Shown: positions 3,072 to 22,466 of the stretch, in pieces
Position numbering within the stretch: position 1 is the stretch's first letter
How the letters are laid out: every line of letters starts with the position of its first letter
Assembly (NCBI GenBank): GCA_016219465.1
Contig: JACRMW010000034.1
Coordinates: forward strand, 176 to 24,175
Direction: 5' to 3'
Length of the DNA: 24,000 bases
Source of the DNA: Candidatus Aenigmatarchaeota archaeon
Lineage (GTDB): Archaea; Aenigmatarchaeota; Aenigmatarchaeia; GW2011-AR5; JACRAC01
Translations under genes and position numbers: made by a program
The notes under the pieces: model-generated
Database searches by the model: none
What the model was told of the DNA's origin: nothing
What the model saw: only the letters and a program-made list of their open reading frames with translations

Positions 3072-3348
3072 TTATAGTGGACCAACAAAAGAATACAAAC
3101 AGAAGCTTTGCTTCTGTTGTACAAGAAGGAATTTGCAATTCCTTCTGTACGCAAAGACTTGAGAAGTCTTTGCTGTACAGATTGAATCCTAGATTCAATC
3201 ATGTATAGCAACCAATGAAATATTATATGTAAGTATATATGGTGAAGCATAGCTTCACCTATACAGGTGGAACTATGTTCCACCATGTACCTGATTATTT
3301 CATTGGCTTGCTATAAATGCGATATCAAAAGAACTTGTTCTTGTATAG
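3072..3348 (-). repeat. TGTACA-hairpin mosaic array A (reverse orientation relative to B, C and D)
   Basis: Ends are TTATAG (3072-3077) and CTATAA (3311-3316). Perfect hairpins lie at 3098-3118, 3124-3146, 3151-3173, 3180-3200, 3241-3259 and 3266-3284, joined by TGTACA, TGTAC, ATGTAT or TATACA. An internal inverted repeat, TATAGCAACCAATGAAAT (3204-3221) / ATTTCATTGGCTTGCTATA (3297-3315, one extra base), encloses two hairpins. An extra weak hairpin lies at 3329-3342. Confidence 0.9.
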
Positions 3349-4546: not shown

Positions 4547-4578
4547 GTTTTGCATTTCTACAAAACTGATTTTTATTT
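4547..4578 (+). terminator. hairpin GTTTTG/CAAAAC followed by a T5 tract directly after the eif6 stop
   Basis: Inverted repeat 4547-4552 / 4561-4566, then TGATTTTTATTT. Archaeal termination at oligo-T is established, but the call here is inferred. Confidence 0.3.
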
Positions 4579-4773
4579 ATAATGGAGAAAGCAGTTCGCC
4601 TGATTTTCTTGTGAAAATAAAAACACCCCCTCTCTTAAGCAATTCAAGTCCTCCAATCTTTATTGGCCAGCGAAATTCAGGCCCTATTAATTCAGTTTAT
4701 AAGAATTTGCAGTTATGAGATTGCGCAATTGCCTGTTGCTGTCTCCGTTTCTTTCCAGATTCAGATTATCAAA

Positions 4774-4932
4774 ATAGAGGACTTTGAATAACATGTGTTT
4801 TGGTCAAAGTCCTTATTGAGAACTTTCACATGGTGTACACAAAGACCTTTAGTCTTTGTGTACAGCGTGTAAAAAGACTTCAGAATACCTGAAGTCTTTT
4901 TACAGATTGTAGGGTTAATCAAAGTTCTCAAT
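4774..4932 (+). mobile_element. family-2 two-hairpin MITE-like element, copy 1, carrying a 77-bp insertion of two TGTACA hairpins
   Basis: Terminal inverted repeat ATAGAGGACTTTGAATAAC / GTTAATCAAAGTTCTCAAT. Hairpin 1 is AGGACTTTGA...TCAAAGTCCT. Hairpin 2 (GAGAACTTT...AAAGTTCTC) is interrupted at 4829-4905. It aligns to copies at 20581-20665 (minus) and 22158-22241 (plus). Confidence 0.8.
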
Positions 4933-5119
4933 AATCATTCATTAGCGCGAGATGCTTTTTATAGCAGCCAGTAATAAATGCTCTAGATTCATCATCAAGA
5001 TAGTCTGCTGAAAACCATGGAATATTAAGAACCTTTTCTTTAGCTTTTTCAGCGCGCGATAATCTGTCATGCACTGTGATTGTTTCTCCAGTAGAATATG
5101 GCATATTATCATTAGCCAT
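4928..5119 (-). CDS. hypothetical small protein (63 aa)
   Basis: ORF 4928-5146; the ATG at 5119 gives MANDNMPYSTGE.... CACTATAAAAAC lies about 36 nt upstream. The last codons and the stop lie inside the family-2 element end. I recognise no family. Confidence 0.4.
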   Translation of the reverse strand: MANDNMPYSTGETITVHDRLSRAEKAKEKVLNIPWFSADYLDDESRAFITGCYKKHLALMNDY

Positions 5120-5152
5120 GAAATCTTTTAATATACACATCCACATAAGTTT

Positions 5153-5225
5153 TTATAGTGAACCAAATATAGCTCGCTATAAACAATCCAGATACAACAA
5201 AGATTCTCTGAATCTTTGAATATAG
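5153..5225 (+). repeat. degenerate hairpin-array element with one cassette
   Basis: Starts TTATAGTGAACCAA at 5153 and contains TAGCTCGCTATAA. The hairpin CAAAGATT-CTCTG-AATCTTTG (5198-5218) is the same cassette as 5770-5792 with one loop change. Confidence 0.6.
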
Positions 5226-5235
5226 GAATGATAAT

Positions 5236-5697: not shown

Positions 5698-5737
5698 TTC
5701 AACAGCTTTTTATTCTATCAATATTAAGCTTATTCTA

Positions 5738-5846
5738 TTATAGTGAAGCAAGTAAATAATCAGAATAAAACAAAGATTCTCTAAATCTTTGTGTACAGAA
5801 AGAACTATGTTCTTTCTTGTATAATATCACTTGCTTCATATATAGC
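5738..5846 (+). repeat. TGTACA-hairpin element F (two cassettes with a closing stem)
   Basis: TTATAG-TGAAGCAAGT (5738-5753) pairs with ACTTGCTTCA (5829-5838), followed by TATATAGC. Hairpins lie at 5770-5792 and 5798-5816, separated by TGTACA (5792-5797) and followed by TGTAT. Confidence 0.85.
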
Positions 5847-5905
5847 AAACAACAAATATAATACTGAATACTTTGTTGTATTGCTATAAGCAAAGAGTGA
5901 TTTTT

Positions 5906-7570: not shown

Positions 7571-7677
7571 ATAAAATGGACAGAATTAGCCAGACATGGA
7601 ATGATCAATGAAATTGAAAGACTCCAAAAAGCAAACATTCTTAAAAAAATGATTGGCATCCTGTTGATGAAATGGAT

Positions 7678-7913
7678 TTATAGCAAACCAAGTAGATAAT
7701 CAGGTATGATACATGGTGGACCCGTTGAGTCCACCTGTACAGGTTGAGCATAGCTCAACCATGTATATTGGTTTGCTATACAGAATTGAACATAATTCAA
7801 TCTGTACAGGTAAAGCTTGCCTTGCCATGTATCGGTACAAGGAGGAAAATATATTTCCTCCTGTACAACAGAAGCAAAGCTTCTGTTTGTATTCTTTTGT
7901 TGGCTCACTATAA
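7678..7913 (+). repeat. TGTACA-hairpin mosaic array B
   Basis: Ends are TTATAG (7678-7683) and CTATAA (7908-7913). Hairpins lie at 7715-7735, 7742-7760, 7783-7802, 7809-7826, 7840-7862 and 7867-7887. Junctions are TGTACA at 7736, 7803 and 7862, GTACA at 7835, and ATGTAT/TGTAT variants. The inner inverted repeat TATAGCAAACCAA (7679-7691) / TTGGTTTGCTATA (7768-7780) encloses the first two hairpins. Confidence 0.9.
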
Positions 7914-7915
7914 TT

Positions 7916-8296
7916 TCACACAATAAAACTCAGATCTCCGATTTCTGGATTGATCACAACATCGCAGTTATTCCATTTGCCACGCTCTTTATTTTTATAC
8001 CCTTCATAAAACCATACATATTCATTCTGCTGCTGTTCAGACGTTTCAAATATTTCATTAGCAGTTTTCAGATCACTCAGCTTTGCTTCAGTATAGCCTT
8101 TCCAAAATAATTTTGATCTAAGTGGTTTTAGCGACTTGTAGTTTCCAACAATATTAACCTGTGTAAAGAAATATATTTCTGGCATCTTGCTGGCATTGTT
8201 TATAAGATAAGCCATGCTTTTTTCATTCATTGTTTTTCTAGCATTTCTCTCATAATTTTCTGATTCTTCATAAGATGTTAAATTATCACTATACAT
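7916..8296 (-). CDS. hypothetical protein whose 5' end is disrupted by a 19-bp tandem duplication
   Basis: ORF 7916-8308 (GTG start), with an internal ATG at 8296. An SD-preceded ATG at 8327 would be in frame only if one 19-bp repeat copy were removed. No family recognised. Confidence 0.5.
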   Translation of the reverse strand: MYSDNLTSYEESENYERNARKTMNEKSMAYLINNASKMPEIYFFTQVNIVGNYKSLKPLRSKLFWKGYTEAKLSDLKTANEIFETSEQQQNEYVWFYEGYKNKERGKWNNCDVVINPEIGDLSFIV

Positions 8297-8320
8297 AACC
8301 TTTATCACTATACATAACCT
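8283..8320. repeat. perfect 19-bp x2 tandem duplication (TTATCACTATACATAACCT)
   Basis: Copies at 8283-8301 and 8302-8320 are identical. They cover the start region of the 7916-8327 gene. Confidence 0.95.
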
Positions 8321-9270: not shown

Positions 9271-9278
9271 TAGTGGGT

Positions 9279-9536
9279 ATGACTAATGTGAAAATTGATG
9301 ACAGGGGCAGAATATTAATACCTCAAGAAATTCGCGAAGCTATACATATGGAATCAGAAGAGGTGTTGAATCTGGTTTTAGAGGATGACACTATTCTTCT
9401 AAGGAGATTAAGACACAAAAAGACGCAGAAGAAGGATTCTTTGCTTGTTTTATTAGAATCTCCTATGCATGTTGATCCAAAGAAATTAAAGGGGATTGAT
9501 CTGGAAGAGATAGAGAATAAAATGTGGTTGCCGTGA
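9279..9536 (+). CDS. vapB: AbrB/SpoVT-family antitoxin (VapB-like)
   Basis: MTNVKIDDRGRILIPQEIREAIHMESEEVL is a canonical SpoVT-AbrB N-terminus. It overlaps the downstream PIN gene. Confidence 0.8.
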   Translation: MTNVKIDDRGRILIPQEIREAIHMESEEVLNLVLEDDTILLRRLRHKKTQKKDSLLVLLESPMHVDPKKLKGIDLEEIENKMWLP

Positions 9537-9925
9537 TTCTTATAGATTCCAATATATGGATTTTTGCAAATATTGAGGAATATCCTGAGAACAGTTCTGC
9601 AAGAAAACTCATAATAAATGCCACAAAAGAACAGATAGCAATCAATGCAATAATTTTGTCAGAAGTCTTTCATAAGCTGAGTGTCTTGACAAATGTTGAA
9701 AAGGCAATAAAAGCCATTGAAAATATCATTGATTCAGATTATGTTGTTTATCTGCCAATTGAAGAATCCACCATATCAAAAGCATTATATCTTACAAAGA
9801 AGCAACTTAGAATAAATGACGCTATAATTGCGCAGCATGCAAAGGACATTAGATGCAAACTCTTGAGCGACAATGCAAAGGATTTCAATAAAATAGACGG
9901 CATAAAGTTGTTAAAATTCAGATGA
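9524..9925 (+). CDS. vapC: PIN-domain ribonuclease toxin (VapC-like)
   Basis: Acidic PIN residues occur in LIDSN, SEV, NDAIIA and SDNAKDF. The GTG start at 9524 overlaps vapB by 13 nt; an in-frame GTG at 9533 overlaps by 4 nt (GTGA). Confidence 0.85.
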   Translation: MVAVILIDSNIWIFANIEEYPENSSARKLIINATKEQIAINAIILSEVFHKLSVLTNVEKAIKAIENIIDSDYVVYLPIEESTISKALYLTKKQLRINDAIIAQHAKDIRCKLLSDNAKDFNKIDGIKLLKFR

Positions 9926-11798: not shown

Positions 11799-11922
11799 TC
11801 TTTCGCGCTCACTGCGCTCAGATGCGCATCAAAGATGCTTCTTCGCTTTGCTCGCTTGAATCTTTCGCGCTCACTGCGCTCAGATGCGCATCAAAGATGC
11901 TTCTTCGCTTTGCTCGCTTGAA
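11799..11922. repeat. perfect 62-bp x2 tandem repeat, locally GC-rich
   Basis: Unit TCTTTCGCGCTCACTGCGCTCAGATGCGCATCAAAGATGCTTCTTCGCTTTGCTCGCTTGAA occurs at 11799-11860 and 11861-11922. It contains the 10-bp palindrome GATGCGCATC. It fills most of the gap between the nuclease stop (11923) and the Rpp21 start (11786). Confidence 0.95.
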
Positions 11923-15927: not shown

Positions 15928-16208
15928 AACAAAATGACTTTCGAAGAAAGTCATTTTGTTCTTGTATAGGAAAGTATATTTATTATGATATTTTCCTATA
16001 CAAGACACACAGAAAGCAGAGCTTTCTGGTGCACCAAACAACGTATGTTGTTTGTGTGTTTAGCGAGCTTGCGAAGCAAGGCCGCTTTGTTCTTTCTGTA
16101 CAGGTAAAGCTTGCTTTACCATGTATCGGTACAAGGAGGAAAATATATTTCCTCCTGTACAACAGAAGCAAAGCTTCTGTTTGTATTCTTTTGTTGGCTC
16201 ACTATAAT
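15928..16208 (+). repeat. hairpin array C: long hairpins, a two-hairpin domain closed by ACACAC/GTGTGT, then three TGTACA cassettes
   Basis: 14-bp stem at 15928-15960. 13-bp stem at 15961-16004. ACACAC (16005-16010) / GTGTGT (16054-16059) encloses hairpins at 16010-16028 and 16035-16054. Cassettes lie at 16103-16120, 16134-16156 and 16161-16181. Segment 16097-16208 matches 7803-7914 at 110 of 112 positions. Confidence 0.9.
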
Positions 16209-16215
16209 CACTGTT

Positions 16216-16821
16216 TTATCTATTTGCAGAAAACTTCTTTCTTGGAATTTTGTTTTTCTCTAGAAAAAAATTCATCTCTTTCAATATATTATTGCATTGA
16301 TCTATGGAGCTGGTTGGATCATTTCCTCGTATATCCACTATTGGATTCTTTCTGCCAGCAACGTATGCTGCAAACCAGTCAGTAACTCCATCTCCTTCTT
16401 TGTCATATACAGAGAAGGAATTTTCTTTATCATAGACATGAATGACATTGCCTTCTAATTCTATTTTTGCGCCAGCTTTCAATGCATGGACGCAGGCATT
16501 GATGTATTTTTGCGTAATGGCTTGCGCCATTTCCTTGTATGCGCCGTCTGCATTAACAGCAATATCATTCTCCATGACAACAGATGCTTCAGATGATTTT
16601 GCCCCTATCCTGGCATAATCAGGAAATCCGTCAAAACTACCCATTGTGCCATCATAGAAAATCCATTTATTTGGCCCTCTATACACAATCAATCTAGATT
16701 GACCTGATTTAGGCAATCCTTTGTAATCTGGCGCGACTTCAATAACAGCGCCATTTGAAACAAAACTTGCCCTGGACAAATCAAAATCTCCTGCATATGC
16801 CTGACTACATGGCGCATCCAT
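16216..16821 (-). CDS. hypothetical protein (201 aa)
   Basis: Clean ORF with an ATG start and non-repetitive composition. No family recognised. Confidence 0.55.
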   Translation of the reverse strand: MDAPCSQAYAGDFDLSRASFVSNGAVIEVAPDYKGLPKSGQSRLIVYRGPNKWIFYDGTMGSFDGFPDYARIGAKSSEASVVMENDIAVNADGAYKEMAQAITQKYINACVHALKAGAKIELEGNVIHVYDKENSFSVYDKEGDGVTDWFAAYVAGRKNPIVDIRGNDPTSSIDQCNNILKEMNFFLEKNKIPRKKFSANR

Positions 16822-17742: not shown

Positions 17743-18012
17743 TCATAGCAATTTACTAGAATCATCATAAACATTTTTCCTATGTCCAATGAAAAGAACT
17801 ATTATTTTCTTTTCTGCATGATTTATTTCAAGGATCGCTCTATAATCACCTATTCTAATTTTCCAGAAAGGTGTTGAGACAAGTTTTTCGCAATGATCTG
17901 TAGCATTTCTTAATAACTTTAGTTCTGTTTTTATTCTATCCCCATTAATTCTATCAATCTTTTTAAGAAACTCTGCTGCCTTAGGATGCAGAAGAACAGT
18001 ATAATTCATCAT
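17743..18012 (-). CDS. relE: RelE/ParE-family toxin
   Basis: 89 aa. WKIRIGDYRAILEINHAEKKIIVLFIGHRKNVY is the RelE/StbE C-terminal signature. It has a 4-nt ATGA overlap with the upstream antitoxin gene. Confidence 0.8.
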   Translation of the reverse strand: MMNYTVLLHPKAAEFLKKIDRINGDRIKTELKLLRNATDHCEKLVSTPFWKIRIGDYRAILEINHAEKKIIVLFIGHRKNVYDDSSKLL

Positions 18013-18227
18013 ACCTCCTCAAATGGAATAAGTATGCCAGGGTTATTCTTGCTTTCATCGCTTCTTTTTGCAAGCATTTTTAGAAATTTCATGGTCTTCT
18101 CTCTTTCCTCAAAAAATGCAACAATTGTTTTTATAGCATCGCTTCTGCTTTTGAATTTTCCAGATTCAACCCATTTATCAATCTCATCCACAGTCTTTTC
18201 TGGCATTCTTATCTGAACTTGTATCAT
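18009..18227 (-). CDS. ribbon-helix-helix (CopG-like) antitoxin
   Basis: IQVQIRMPEKTVDEIDKWVESGKFKSRSDAIKTIV is an RHH fold pattern. The alternative ATG at 18245 lies inside the palindrome. The TATA-like TTATATATAT at 18256-18265 favours a near-leaderless start at 18227. Confidence 0.75.
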   Translation of the reverse strand: MIQVQIRMPEKTVDEIDKWVESGKFKSRSDAIKTIVAFFEEREKTMKFLKMLAKRSDESKNNPGILIPFEEV

Positions 18228-18237
18228 ATCACTCACT

Positions 18238-18255
18238 GTAAACATATGTGTTTAC
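18238..18255 (-). promoter_or_regulatory. palindrome GTAAACA-TATG-TGTTTAC next to a TATA-like box; candidate antitoxin operator
   Basis: Perfect 7-bp arms at 18238-18244 and 18249-18255, directly downstream of TTATATATAT (minus-strand sense) and overlapping the first ATG of the RHH gene. Confidence 0.4.
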
Positions 18256-20552: not shown

Positions 20553-20665
20553 TATATAGCTCTCCAATGAAGTATTCACTATAGAGAACTTTGATTAACC
20601 CTACAACTCATCAAAGTTCACAATAAGGACCTTGACCAAAACACACATTATTCAAAGTCCTCTAT
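20553..20665 (-). mobile_element. family-2 two-hairpin MITE-like element, copy 2 (reverse), preceded by a TATAG...CTATAG mini-module
   Basis: The reverse complement of 20581-20665 aligns to 4774-4828 plus 4906-4932, and to 22158-22241. The mini-module 20553-20584 reads TTATATAGCTCTCCAATGAAGTATTCACTATAG. Confidence 0.8.
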
Positions 20666-20844
20666 ATTATTTCATTGGAAGCTATACATGGTTGAACCAT
20701 GTTCAACCTGTACAGCAAAGACTTCTCAAGTCTTTGCGTACAGAAGGAATTGCAAATTCCTTCTTGTACAGATGAACTCTCTAAGTTCATCATGTATGTG
20801 AACCAACTATTATCATACCTGATTATTTAGTTGGTTCACTATAG
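20666..20844 (+). repeat. TGTACA-hairpin mosaic array D
   Basis: Hairpins lie at 20690-20708, 20715-20737, 20742-20764 and 20771-20791, with TGTACA or GTACA at 20709, 20738 and 20765. The closing hairpin is GTGAACCAACT (20798-20808) / AGTTGGTTCAC (20829-20839), followed by CTATAG. Segment 20709-20770 is identical to the reverse complement of 3118-3179. Confidence 0.9.
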
Positions 20845-20922: not shown

Positions 20923-22158
20923 TTGGTAAAACTTCTATTGGTCCCTTGTTCTGGAGGAGAAACATCTGACTTAACACGAGGAATCTTAAACGCTTTGAAA
21001 CATGATCACAATCTTGGTGAAGATGTTGAGATTTTAGGAAGCAGTAGATCAATAACTATAGAAAAAGGCACTCCAAAAGATAATAGATATCCTTTAGTGG
21101 TTGATTATTTTGATGATGGTGAAGTTCGCGCAGATATTGGAAAAAACGAATTAATCGACACTATCAGAGGCAGACATGTTGTTCTTATAGAACACCTACT
21201 AACACCTGACAGAGAAATGTTTTCAGATTTTATAGGACAAAAGGTTTCTGTCAATGACCATGTCGCAACAGTAAAAGGCGTTCTGAATCTACTTTCAAAT
21301 ACTGATGCACTTGGAAGAATTCTAGTCGCACCATATCTTACATATGTACGCTCACATAGTGTTGAAAAATATAGAGAGCAAGAATTTTTTCAATTTGATT
21401 CGTTGAATATGTTTTTAAAAGAATTCCAAAATTCAAAATTAGACACGTTAGTAACATTAGATCCTCATTCTGACAAAGCAAAACAAATTGCAGAAGAATT
21501 TGGTATGTATTATCATGCTGCAAATCCTTTCCAATCAACTAGATCATTAAATCCATATAAACTAGGCATTGCTGATGAAAAAATAGACAGTGTAATGAAT
21601 AATCTCAGACCTTTTCATAAAAGATTTGAAGAAATGAAAAAAGAATATGGGAATCGTCTTTATTTGGTATCAGTTGATGATGGCACCGAAGGAAGGGTAG
21701 AAAACTTTGTCGATAGATGTTTTGCAGAGCTCCAACCAAAAGAATATTATGCAAGGGTTATGTATTTTGACAAAAGACGAGTTGCTCTAGATAAAAGTGA
21801 ATATAAAGTAAAACCTTTTAGTAAGATAAATAGAAAAAATGTTGATAAAGAAGGAATTTATATAATAATTGATGATATGTATGCAAGTGGAGGAACTGCT
21901 TGTGATGTCGGTGAAATATTAAAAAAAGCTGGTGCAAACCGAGTAGAAGTCTGGACATCTCATGTAGTTACAACACCAAGACAATATGAAAAAAGTAATA
22001 ATAGACCATATATAGATGCCCTCGTATGTATTGATACTGTTCCAAGAAATGATGGATTAAAAGTTGAATATATTCCTGCAAGCACAGCACTTCTAGCATC
22101 AGAAATATACAAAGCCCATCAAAAACTTGTAAACGAAAGATTACGTAGATTTAGATAA
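20923..22158 (+). CDS. prs: divergent ribose-phosphate pyrophosphokinase (PRPP synthetase)-like protein, 411 aa
   Basis: FDDGEVRADI, HVVLIEH, APYLTYVRSH, LDPHS and the PRPP-binding loop IIIDDMYASGGTACD follow the Prs order of motifs, but with longer linkers. TTG start with GGTG upstream. Confidence 0.75.
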   Translation: MVKLLLVPCSGGETSDLTRGILNALKHDHNLGEDVEILGSSRSITIEKGTPKDNRYPLVVDYFDDGEVRADIGKNELIDTIRGRHVVLIEHLLTPDREMFSDFIGQKVSVNDHVATVKGVLNLLSNTDALGRILVAPYLTYVRSHSVEKYREQEFFQFDSLNMFLKEFQNSKLDTLVTLDPHSDKAKQIAEEFGMYYHAANPFQSTRSLNPYKLGIADEKIDSVMNNLRPFHKRFEEMKKEYGNRLYLVSVDDGTEGRVENFVDRCFAELQPKEYYARVMYFDKRRVALDKSEYKVKPFSKINRKNVDKEGIYIIIDDMYASGGTACDVGEILKKAGANRVEVWTSHVVTTPRQYEKSNNRPYIDALVCIDTVPRNDGLKVEYIPASTALLASEIYKAHQKLVNERLRRFR

Positions 22159-22241
22159 TTGAGGACCTTGAATAACATGCTTTTTACTCAAAGTCCTTAT
22201 TCCGAACTTTGCCAAAACATGGGTTAATCAAAGTTCTCAAT
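22158..22241 (+). mobile_element. family-2 two-hairpin MITE-like element, copy 3
   Basis: ATTGAGGACCTTGAATAAC...GTTAATCAAAGTTCTCAAT, a terminal inverted repeat of about 18 bp with 3 mismatches. It starts on the last base of the prs stop codon. Confidence 0.8.
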
Positions 22242-22466
22242 TATAAAAATGTAATCTATCTAGTCATTTTCCAATAAACCTTTATCTCACAATCAAATTC
22301 CCTACCAACAGAATCAATCATTACATTCTCACCTACAAATACTTTGTTGTATTCTATAAATATTGAAATGCAGAGGGCAGGAATTTCCATCAAACCTATT
22401 TCATGGTTTCTAGAGTTGCCTGTATAATTAGTTTCGTCAGAAACTATATTTCTTTTTAGGCAACAT

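Follow-up and report, generated by a model that had tools for sequence, protein, structure and literature searches.

The window, by which we mean the whole 24,000-nucleotide stretch of DNA analysed here, contains three copies of a short double-hairpin repeat (family-2), one of which (copy 1) carries further hairpins within one of its own loops. The question that this locus raises is whether those hairpins were added to an element that was already in place and, if so, by what kind of process. DPANN genomes are tiny and compact, yet much of the intergenic space here consists of nested palindromic repeats. A preliminary description, made from the letters alone, had reported the three copies, with short loops in the second hairpin of copies 2 and 3; nhmmer and a reading of the sequences find all three copies, and the short loops are confirmed by alignments.

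With a G+C content of 36%, the window comes from an archaeal chromosome of DPANN/Aenigmatarchaeota type and has genes that include those for PolX, eIF6, prefoldin, FtsY, ribosomal proteins, PCNA and PEP synthase; the best non-self match of its eIF6, at 75% identity, is in an Aenigmatarchaeota MAG. Scans of the window against Rfam (E up to 1) and for tRNAs gave zero matches, so that neither family-2 nor the TGTACA hairpins discussed below are explained by a known RNA.

Family-2 is, to judge from its ends and flanks, a 79-bp MITE derived from an IS5-family insertion sequence. Its members are 78–80 bp long, lack an ORF, lie between genes and occur in multiple copies, three of them in the window, with the consensus GAGGACTTTGAATAA-loop-TTCAAAGTCCTTATTGTGAACTTTGA-loop-GGGTTAATCAAAGTTCTC and a double-hairpin interior in which the arm GRACTTTGA is present four times in the orientation → ← → ←. 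An nhmmer profile built from 25 copies places the window copies at 4773–4932 (+), 20581–20665 (−) and 22158–22241 (+), and about 34 copies were gathered with nhmmer from the window and many Aenigmatarchaeota MAGs. The 18-mer GGGTTAATCAAAGTTCTC, common to all three window copies and kept across genomes, was found at 37 loci in a scan of species-representative genomes, about 27 of which are complete short 79-bp copies in many Aenigmatarchaeota MAGs; the MAG JBAZQV01 holds at least 11 family-2 copies. The 4-mers that flank the element are identical in 30 of 31 full copies (AATA in 25, AATG in two, and TATA, AATT and TGAT once each), and since they co-vary on both sides, the five non-AATA variants included, they are taken as 4-bp target-site duplications. 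The assignment to the IS5 family follows from these duplications and from a related metagenome contig, L005, in which an intact IS5-family insertion sequence of about 1.2 kb has the same ends as family-2 (AATA/TAGAGGACTTTGATTA ... GGGGTTAATCAAAGTTCTC/AATA) and a 330-aa ORF that scores 197 bits on the NCBIfam model NF033581 transpos_IS5_4 (cutoff 140) and matches Pfam DUF772 and DDE_Tnp_1. An IS5-like element in the nearest relative (L038) was discarded as the parent of the MITE, its ends being unrelated.

In being small, without an ORF, intergenic and bounded by matching terminal inverted repeats and a 4-bp duplication, family-2 resembles other IS5-family MITEs, which are moved in trans by an IS5-family DDE transposase and from which it differs in its double-hairpin interior and in its conservation of 90% or more across Aenigmatarchaeota. 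We found no published description of it in the literature on DPANN/Aenigmarchaeota repeats, and a scan of viral contigs for the MITE gave one spurious match and otherwise none. Between MAGs of different sites family-2 is about 90% or more identical, while the eIF6 proteins there are at most 75% identical to that of the window, a pattern that suggests horizontal and recent spread of the IS and the MITE among Aenigmatarchaeota. Its identity as an IS5-family MITE common to many members of this group makes family-2 helpful in annotating genomes and in tracing horizontal exchange between these organisms.

Two of the window copies are empty. Copy 2 (79 nt, 20584–20662, minus strand, placed by nhmmer) is flanked by the duplication TATA (20580–20583 and 20663–20666), and copy 3 (78 nt, 22161–22238, plus strand, likewise from nhmmer) by AATT (22157–22160 and 22239–22242). 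The left AATT of copy 3 (22156–22160 region) overlaps the TAA stop codon of a phosphoribosyltransferase-like gene (20923–22158), so that this MITE abuts the gene end directly and leaves the protein unchanged. Relatives of the element were also encountered elsewhere. Contigs L007, L011, L017, L020 and L028 of the MAG DeMMO3_24, labelled Thaumarchaeota, start 40–100 nt inside one shared sequence that finishes at the family-2 right terminus (...AAAACTATCGAAAAAAAAGAGGGTTAATCAAAGTTCTC), apparently a longer, second multi-copy relative of the IS at which the assembly breaks; the binning label of DeMMO3_24 may be wrong. A different double-hairpin element, TATAGAGGGTTTTGATAAACCCTATATAGCGAACTTTGAT...37 nt...GGGGTTAATCAAAGTTCTCTATA, at L030 2775–2859 and L040 166–250 has only the second-half arms in common with family-2 and is probably a separate MITE lineage within the same IS group.

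Copy 1, by comparison with the canonical 79 nt, is filled and 153 nt long (4777–4929, plus strand; nhmmer, model positions 1–86), and its ends match those of the L005 insertion sequence. It lies between two copies of AATA (4773–4776 and 4930–4933), an equal 4-mer on both flanks. The first half of the MITE, the hairpin GAGGACTTTGA...TCAAAGTCC (4777–4812, plus strand), is intact in both fold and alignments. The left arm of the second half, GAGAACTTT (4818–4826, plus strand), forms an inverted repeat with the right terminal arm, AAAGTTCTC (4921–4929, plus strand), which lies inside the conserved 18-mer. Between these arms stands a module of 74–75 nt (4831–4905, plus strand; 4828–4901 is an alternative placement), around which the terminal repeats and the 4-bp duplication are undamaged. 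The module holds two hairpins. Hairpin a, TGTACA-CAAAGAC-ctttA-GTCTTTG-TGTACA (4834–4864), has a perfect stem of 13 bp (TGTACACAAAGAC/GTCTTTGTGTACA) and the loop CTTTA, exactly where the preliminary description had put the first hairpin of its extra segment. Hairpin b, TGTAAAAAGACTTCAG-aatac-CTGAAGTCTTTTTACA (4868–4904), has a perfect stem of 16 bp, one base pair longer than the 15 bp first assigned to it at 4869–4903, and the loop AATAC. Both had been called TGTACA hairpins, which is right for hairpin a; hairpin b has only a TGTA/TACA foot, and its unusually long stem is atypical for the family. The two have TGTA..AAAGAC in common. The single-stranded DNA fold of copy 1 has −48.6 kcal/mol (z = −11.4) and keeps the outer stem of the second half closed around both inserted hairpins; that of the empty copy 2 has −13.6 kcal/mol.

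The empty site of copy 1 can be read from L043, a family-2 copy in another metagenome that shares 77 of its 79 element positions with copy 1 and reads ...GAGAACTTTCACAAATTGTAGGGTTAATC... at the position of the insert. The metagenome scan that yielded L043, and L044 discussed below, was designed for copies with 26–86 nt between the second-half arms, and the empty L043 passed it because its first arm reads GAACTTT. The site is CACA/A/ATTGTAGGG, obtained by alignment of copies as the preliminary description had expected, and the insert at 4831–4905 is either 75 nt in place of one A or 74 nt with an A-to-G change; the borders slide by 3 nt because ACA stands both before the insert and at its end. 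The extra DNA previously given as about 77 bp is real, and its length is to be corrected accordingly. As the short form accounts for 31 of the roughly 34 family-2 copies in many genomes and the long one for only three, and as the near-identical L043 is empty, the long form is clearly derived, and the event was an insertion and not the outcome of deletions elsewhere in the family. The proposal of an insertion into a pre-existing element has thus held, and the contrary case that accompanied it, a segment present in most copies, is the reverse of what the alignments contain. A two-hairpin module has been added inside a pre-existing MITE whose ends were left undisturbed, and the pair of filled and empty sites records a dated, directional event in which the hairpins joined the element after it had formed.

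The surroundings of copy 1 differ between genomes. The segment 4547–5235 is wholly absent from the nearest relative, whose eIF6 identity is only 75%, and so is family-2 from the eIF6–prefoldin spacer of that closest available genome; the spacer measures 690 bp in the window (4547–5235) versus 187 bp in the relative (L038 2400–2586). The extra DNA consists of the MITE, about 225 bp without assignment (4547–4772) and an orphan ORF of 63–72 aa (4928–5146, minus strand), which has no homologue among 5.8 billion proteins and no family. This ORF beside the MITE was considered as a candidate enzyme and dropped as an orphan without family.

By its feet and stems the insert is a member of the genome's own intergenic hairpin family. 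Counting as perfect any hairpin with a stem of 8 bp or more and a loop of 3–7 nt, the window has 30, compared with 3.5 ± 2.0 in dinucleotide shuffles, and 22 of the 30 lie within 12 nt of another. A strict ACA...TGT foot is found on 14 of them, compared with a background of 1.2%, and GTA/TAC on both sides of 18. The motif TGTACA occurs 13 times where 4.3 are expected, an excess that arises because hairpin units abut as ...TG/TA/CA.... About 20 hairpins with TGTA/TACA feet lie in the intergenic arrays of the window, and both inserted hairpins are alike in this respect. The stem of hairpin a falls into a CAAAGA(C/T) group, with kin at 3151 and 20715 (GCAAAGACTT) and at 5770 (ACAAAGATT), and at its left edge the insert reads CATGGTG, as arrays usually do (7710 and 20685). 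The hairpin pattern, at copy 1 and in the window as a whole, is not due to chance. Unit stems differ by changes on both arms (GGTGGAAC, GGTTGAAC, GGTTGAGC, GGTGAAGC), and units recur in rearranged or inverted arrays, as in 3124–3173 versus 20715–20764.

The arrays are spread over the window. Six TGTACA-type hairpins lie at 3098–3284, a pair at 5770–5817, further arrays at 7715–7887 and at 16103–16181 (the latter a paralogue of 7809–7887), and four hairpins at 20690–20791, the middle two units of which are the reverse complement of 3124–3173. The 119-nt hairpin arrays at 7796–7914 and 16090–16208 are 97% identical, each immediately 3' of a minus-strand ORF (7916–8308 and 16216–16821, the two being unrelated and of unknown function), and hairpin 7809–7826 has lost pairing relative to its paralogue 16103–16120. 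Related MAGs have similar tandem hairpins with the junctions TGTACA, GTGCAC/GTGCGC or CACA/TGTG, at about 0.4 hairpins per kb versus 1.25 per kb in the window, or about a third of its density.

Copy 1 is one of several cases. In L044, a family-2 copy with intact AATA flanks has about 54 nt in the same loop, with two unrelated hairpins (CATGAATG..., GGCAAAGC...), and lies 600 bp from a second copy that is empty. In L014, a copy recovered by nhmmer, the first-half left arm and the whole second half stand about 225 nt apart with five hairpins between them, in the other loop; the right arm of the first hairpin is lost, and about 25 nt of the host element are missing. L044 and L014 come from unrelated genomes, their hairpins differ from those of the window, and the two copies were filled independently. 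A second class of palindrome in the window, TATAGC...CAA...AAATAATCAGG - loop - ...TTG...GCTATA, behaves similarly: its loop is empty in three instances (20795–20843, after the four-hairpin array; 5841–5888; and L038 58–105) and contains exactly two TGTACA-type hairpins in three others, namely 3201–3315 (with hairpins 3241–3284, the last two of their array), 5736–5850 (with the pair 5770–5817) and 7677–7790 (with 7715–7760, the first pair of its array). The loop of a TATAGC palindrome is twice occupied by family-2 itself, in one L031 copy and in window copy 2 (palindrome 20555–20686), the flanking arms of which, CCAATGAAGTATTCAC and TTATTTCATTGG, can be read as inverted repeats. Four of five apex fills are clean, with exactly two complete hairpins. 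Because L044, L014, the three TATAGC fills and the family-2 copies in TATAGC loops all concern palindrome centres, these centres are repeated landing sites, and hairpin addition there is a recurrent process; the window insert and the two independent cases point to the palindrome apex as a preferred site.

The TATAGC palindromes may have a further role. About 25–30 nt upstream of start codons, for example those of FtsY and of the relative's prefoldin gene, stand their outer arms (GCTATAA) and, for some hairpins, the TGTATAAA edge (sites 5841–5905, 3292–3320 and L038 2540–2590). These sequences may also serve as archaeal TATA boxes of leaderless mRNAs, in which case the repeats may carry promoters.

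The borders of the insert are less regular than its position. The empty site CACAAATTG contains no TA, no other canonical target duplication borders the insert, and a fixed-length duplication for the inserted module is likewise wanting, with only ACA...ACA, the 3-nt ambiguity, in the window and no clear matching flanks around the L044 and L014 inserts. A 'peel and paste' insertion of IS200/IS605 type would place DNA with hairpins at its two ends 3' of a fixed tetranucleotide, without a duplication. In the window the left flank ends in CACA^ and the insert in TACA^; in L044 the insert again ends in TACA^ and the left flank in AAAT^, and L014 does not fit. A duplication or conserved tetranucleotide at the borders, which the preliminary description had proposed to look for, is missing as a signature common to the three filled copies. 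Two readings of the junction were rejected. In one, the hairpin is a TA-targeting (IS630/Tc1-like) mini-element, with TG/TA/CA as end, duplicated TA and end, which fails for this insert because the junction of the empty site contains no TA; in the other, a long target duplication ACAnnnTGTA stands on both sides, which, relative to the empty sequence, would demand three neighbouring substitutions in its left copy. Neither a second copy nor a donor of the 74-nt module turned up when the 24-kb window and about 300 kb of related loci were searched, and an autonomous element with CATGGTKGA-type ends and an ORF was likewise sought without success. It had been suggested that the hairpins are mobile or can be added: two more filled copies bear out addition, and the junctions, the donor search and the transposase search do not support mobility by a defined transposition, which is not established because the junction features are inconsistent.

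What, then, put the hairpins there? The hairpin system is best described, by analogy, as a REP/BIME-like variant in an archaeal lineage. Like REP, BIME and REPIN sequences, the inserted hairpins would be short extragenic palindromes with a foot, arranged in inverted pairs and mosaic tandem clusters, and like them they occur as doublets in longer palindromes, here the loops of the three TATAGC palindromes and of two MITE copies (window and L044). REP dimers inside longer palindromes are known from Anabaena variabilis, Thermomicrobium roseum and Halothiobacillus neapolitanus (PMC3733652); the cleavage and joining of REPs is the work of HUH/Y1 enzymes, which recognise the hairpin and the foot tetranucleotide on single-stranded DNA, and 'double-foot' forms are known (PMC6006769). 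The differences are that the foot here is YACA/TGTR, not GT[AG]G or CGTC, that stems are far more variable between units, and that the host is archaeal, with no RAYT (TnpA-REP)-like gene found in the window. From Archaea only IS200-type Y1 transposases have been reported, and not the REP-associated transposase classes (PMC6006769). Compared with a DDE-type MITE, the inserted module shows no fixed-length duplication and has, in the sequence searched, neither near-identical copies nor an autonomous partner.

Other composite repeats offer partial parallels. Pneumococcal BOX elements (boxA-(boxB)n-boxC) and Neisseria NIME/dRS3 are intergenic and have a variable number of short modules between conserved end modules. 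The arrangement of variable internal modules between conserved ends is shared with the repeats described here, the modules of which differ in being individually perfect hairpins of variable sequence and the ends of which are TATAGC-type palindrome arms. Nested plant MITEs (Tourist/Stowaway) have canonical TA or TAA duplications and many identical inserted copies, and favour other repeats as targets. There, as here, a comparison of filled and empty sites reveals a second inserted family, whereas TA/TAA duplications and identical inserted copies are not seen here.

We consider it reasonably probable that the window at 4777–4929 records a REP-like addition of a hairpin pair to an IS5-family MITE, likely through a trans-acting enzyme that works on single-stranded DNA. 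The 79-bp MITE from its IS5-family parent was in place first (or the insertion occurred in its master copy), and the 74–75-nt two-hairpin module then entered the non-terminal core, between CACA and ATTGTAGGG. The hairpins would behave like bacterial REPs, as short palindromes defined by structure with a conserved foot YACA...TGTR that gives TGTACA where two units abut, usually in pairs and accumulating in tandem arrays. Addition would be preferred at the apex of larger palindromes, where folding on a replication or transcription intermediate would leave the DNA single-stranded. The agent, we infer, is most likely a trans-acting enzyme that reads hairpin structure and foot on single-stranded DNA, similar to IS200/IS605 or REP-associated transposases. 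No HUH/Y1 or other candidate transposase is among the window ORFs, and tblastn with E. coli RayT together with a HUH..Y motif scan, a search of low sensitivity in 300 kb of partial related genomes, was negative. Also counting against an enzyme are the lack of a donor module in the window and the related loci, the differing junctions in the three filled MITE copies and the atypical hairpin b; stems vary greatly between units, which makes a sequence-specific transposase a poor fit. A bolder version, which we put forward tentatively and as doubtful, is a true archaeal counterpart of REP/REPIN, in which YACA-footed doublets are actively inserted at single-stranded apices, of MITEs and of promoter-bearing TATAGC palindromes, by a putative hairpin-recognising enzyme, the window genome being caught in mid-burst. 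To our knowledge, no REP/REPIN-type system of this kind has been described in Archaea. If an enzyme is responsible, REP-type biology would be extended to Archaea, with a concrete substrate for biochemistry.

The main rival to a REP-like process is copying during repair or replication without dedicated mobility: a replication fork would stall at the folded MITE, or the loop would be cut, and the broken or stalled 3' end would copy part of an existing hairpin array elsewhere through 3-nt microhomology and then return, so that whole hairpins are pasted in. The ACA at both borders (CACA/TGG ... TTTACA/G, with L043 as reference) is what two microhomology-guided template switches would be expected to leave, the inconsistent junctions of the three filled copies and the loss of about 25 nt of the host element in L014 agree with it, and the insert begins with an array edge (CATGG+TGTACA) minus the first hairpin. 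The clean fills, with two whole hairpins each, speak against it; moreover, a donor array with these stems is absent from the available sequence, and 3 nt of microhomology are near the level of chance. On balance we judge repair copying unlikely; were it responsible, it would show palindromes seeding further palindromes in a genome of limited repair capacity.

An origin of the hairpins in place, by snap-back or fold-back synthesis, or by hairpin duplication with arm-to-arm correction at a fragile palindrome centre, seems to us a good deal less probable. It would account for stems that are perfectly Watson-Crick throughout with loops of 3–5 nt, for the frequent likeness of neighbours (the motif shared by hairpins a and b; 3241/3266; 7715/7742) and for the paired changes on both arms by which related stems differ. 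However, no arm of the inserted hairpins is derived from flanking MITE sequence, their stems belong to families at other loci, and local fold-back would not yield a conserved foot motif.

It is slightly more improbable still that copy 1 derives from the IS by a separate deletion that left a longer element, or belongs to a cargo-carrying MITE subfamily, and that the hairpins are original internal IS sequence. The insert does occupy the position of the transposase gene in the full-length element, and other variants with different internal segments exist (L026, L030/L040 and the DeMMO3_24 contig ends). Yet outside the insert copy 1 is the near twin of the empty 79-bp L043, the sole full-length IS seen (L005) is without such hairpins near its ends, and the hairpins belong to the TGTACA type native to the host genome. 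That the long form came first and the short copies arose from it by deletion, or that the segment is an assembly artefact, is scarcely credible, as the bare length difference is all that speaks for it, while the short copies of many species have the same loop sequence, L043 contradicts it too, arrays and filled copies are seen in independent assemblies, and a mis-join in a repeat would not leave both element halves and matching target duplications around the insertion.

Two other features of the window deserve mention. Type II toxin-antitoxin pairs are encoded at 9273–9925 (AbrB/MazE-like and PIN) and at 17743–18245 (RHH and ParE). In addition, a 62-bp unit richer in G+C, TCTTTCGCGCTCACTGCGCTCAGATGCGCATCAAAGATGCTTCTTCGCTTTGCTCGCTTGAA, is present as a perfect tandem duplication (×2) at 11799–11922, between the RNase P Rpr2 gene and a gene with a bifunctional-nuclease domain.
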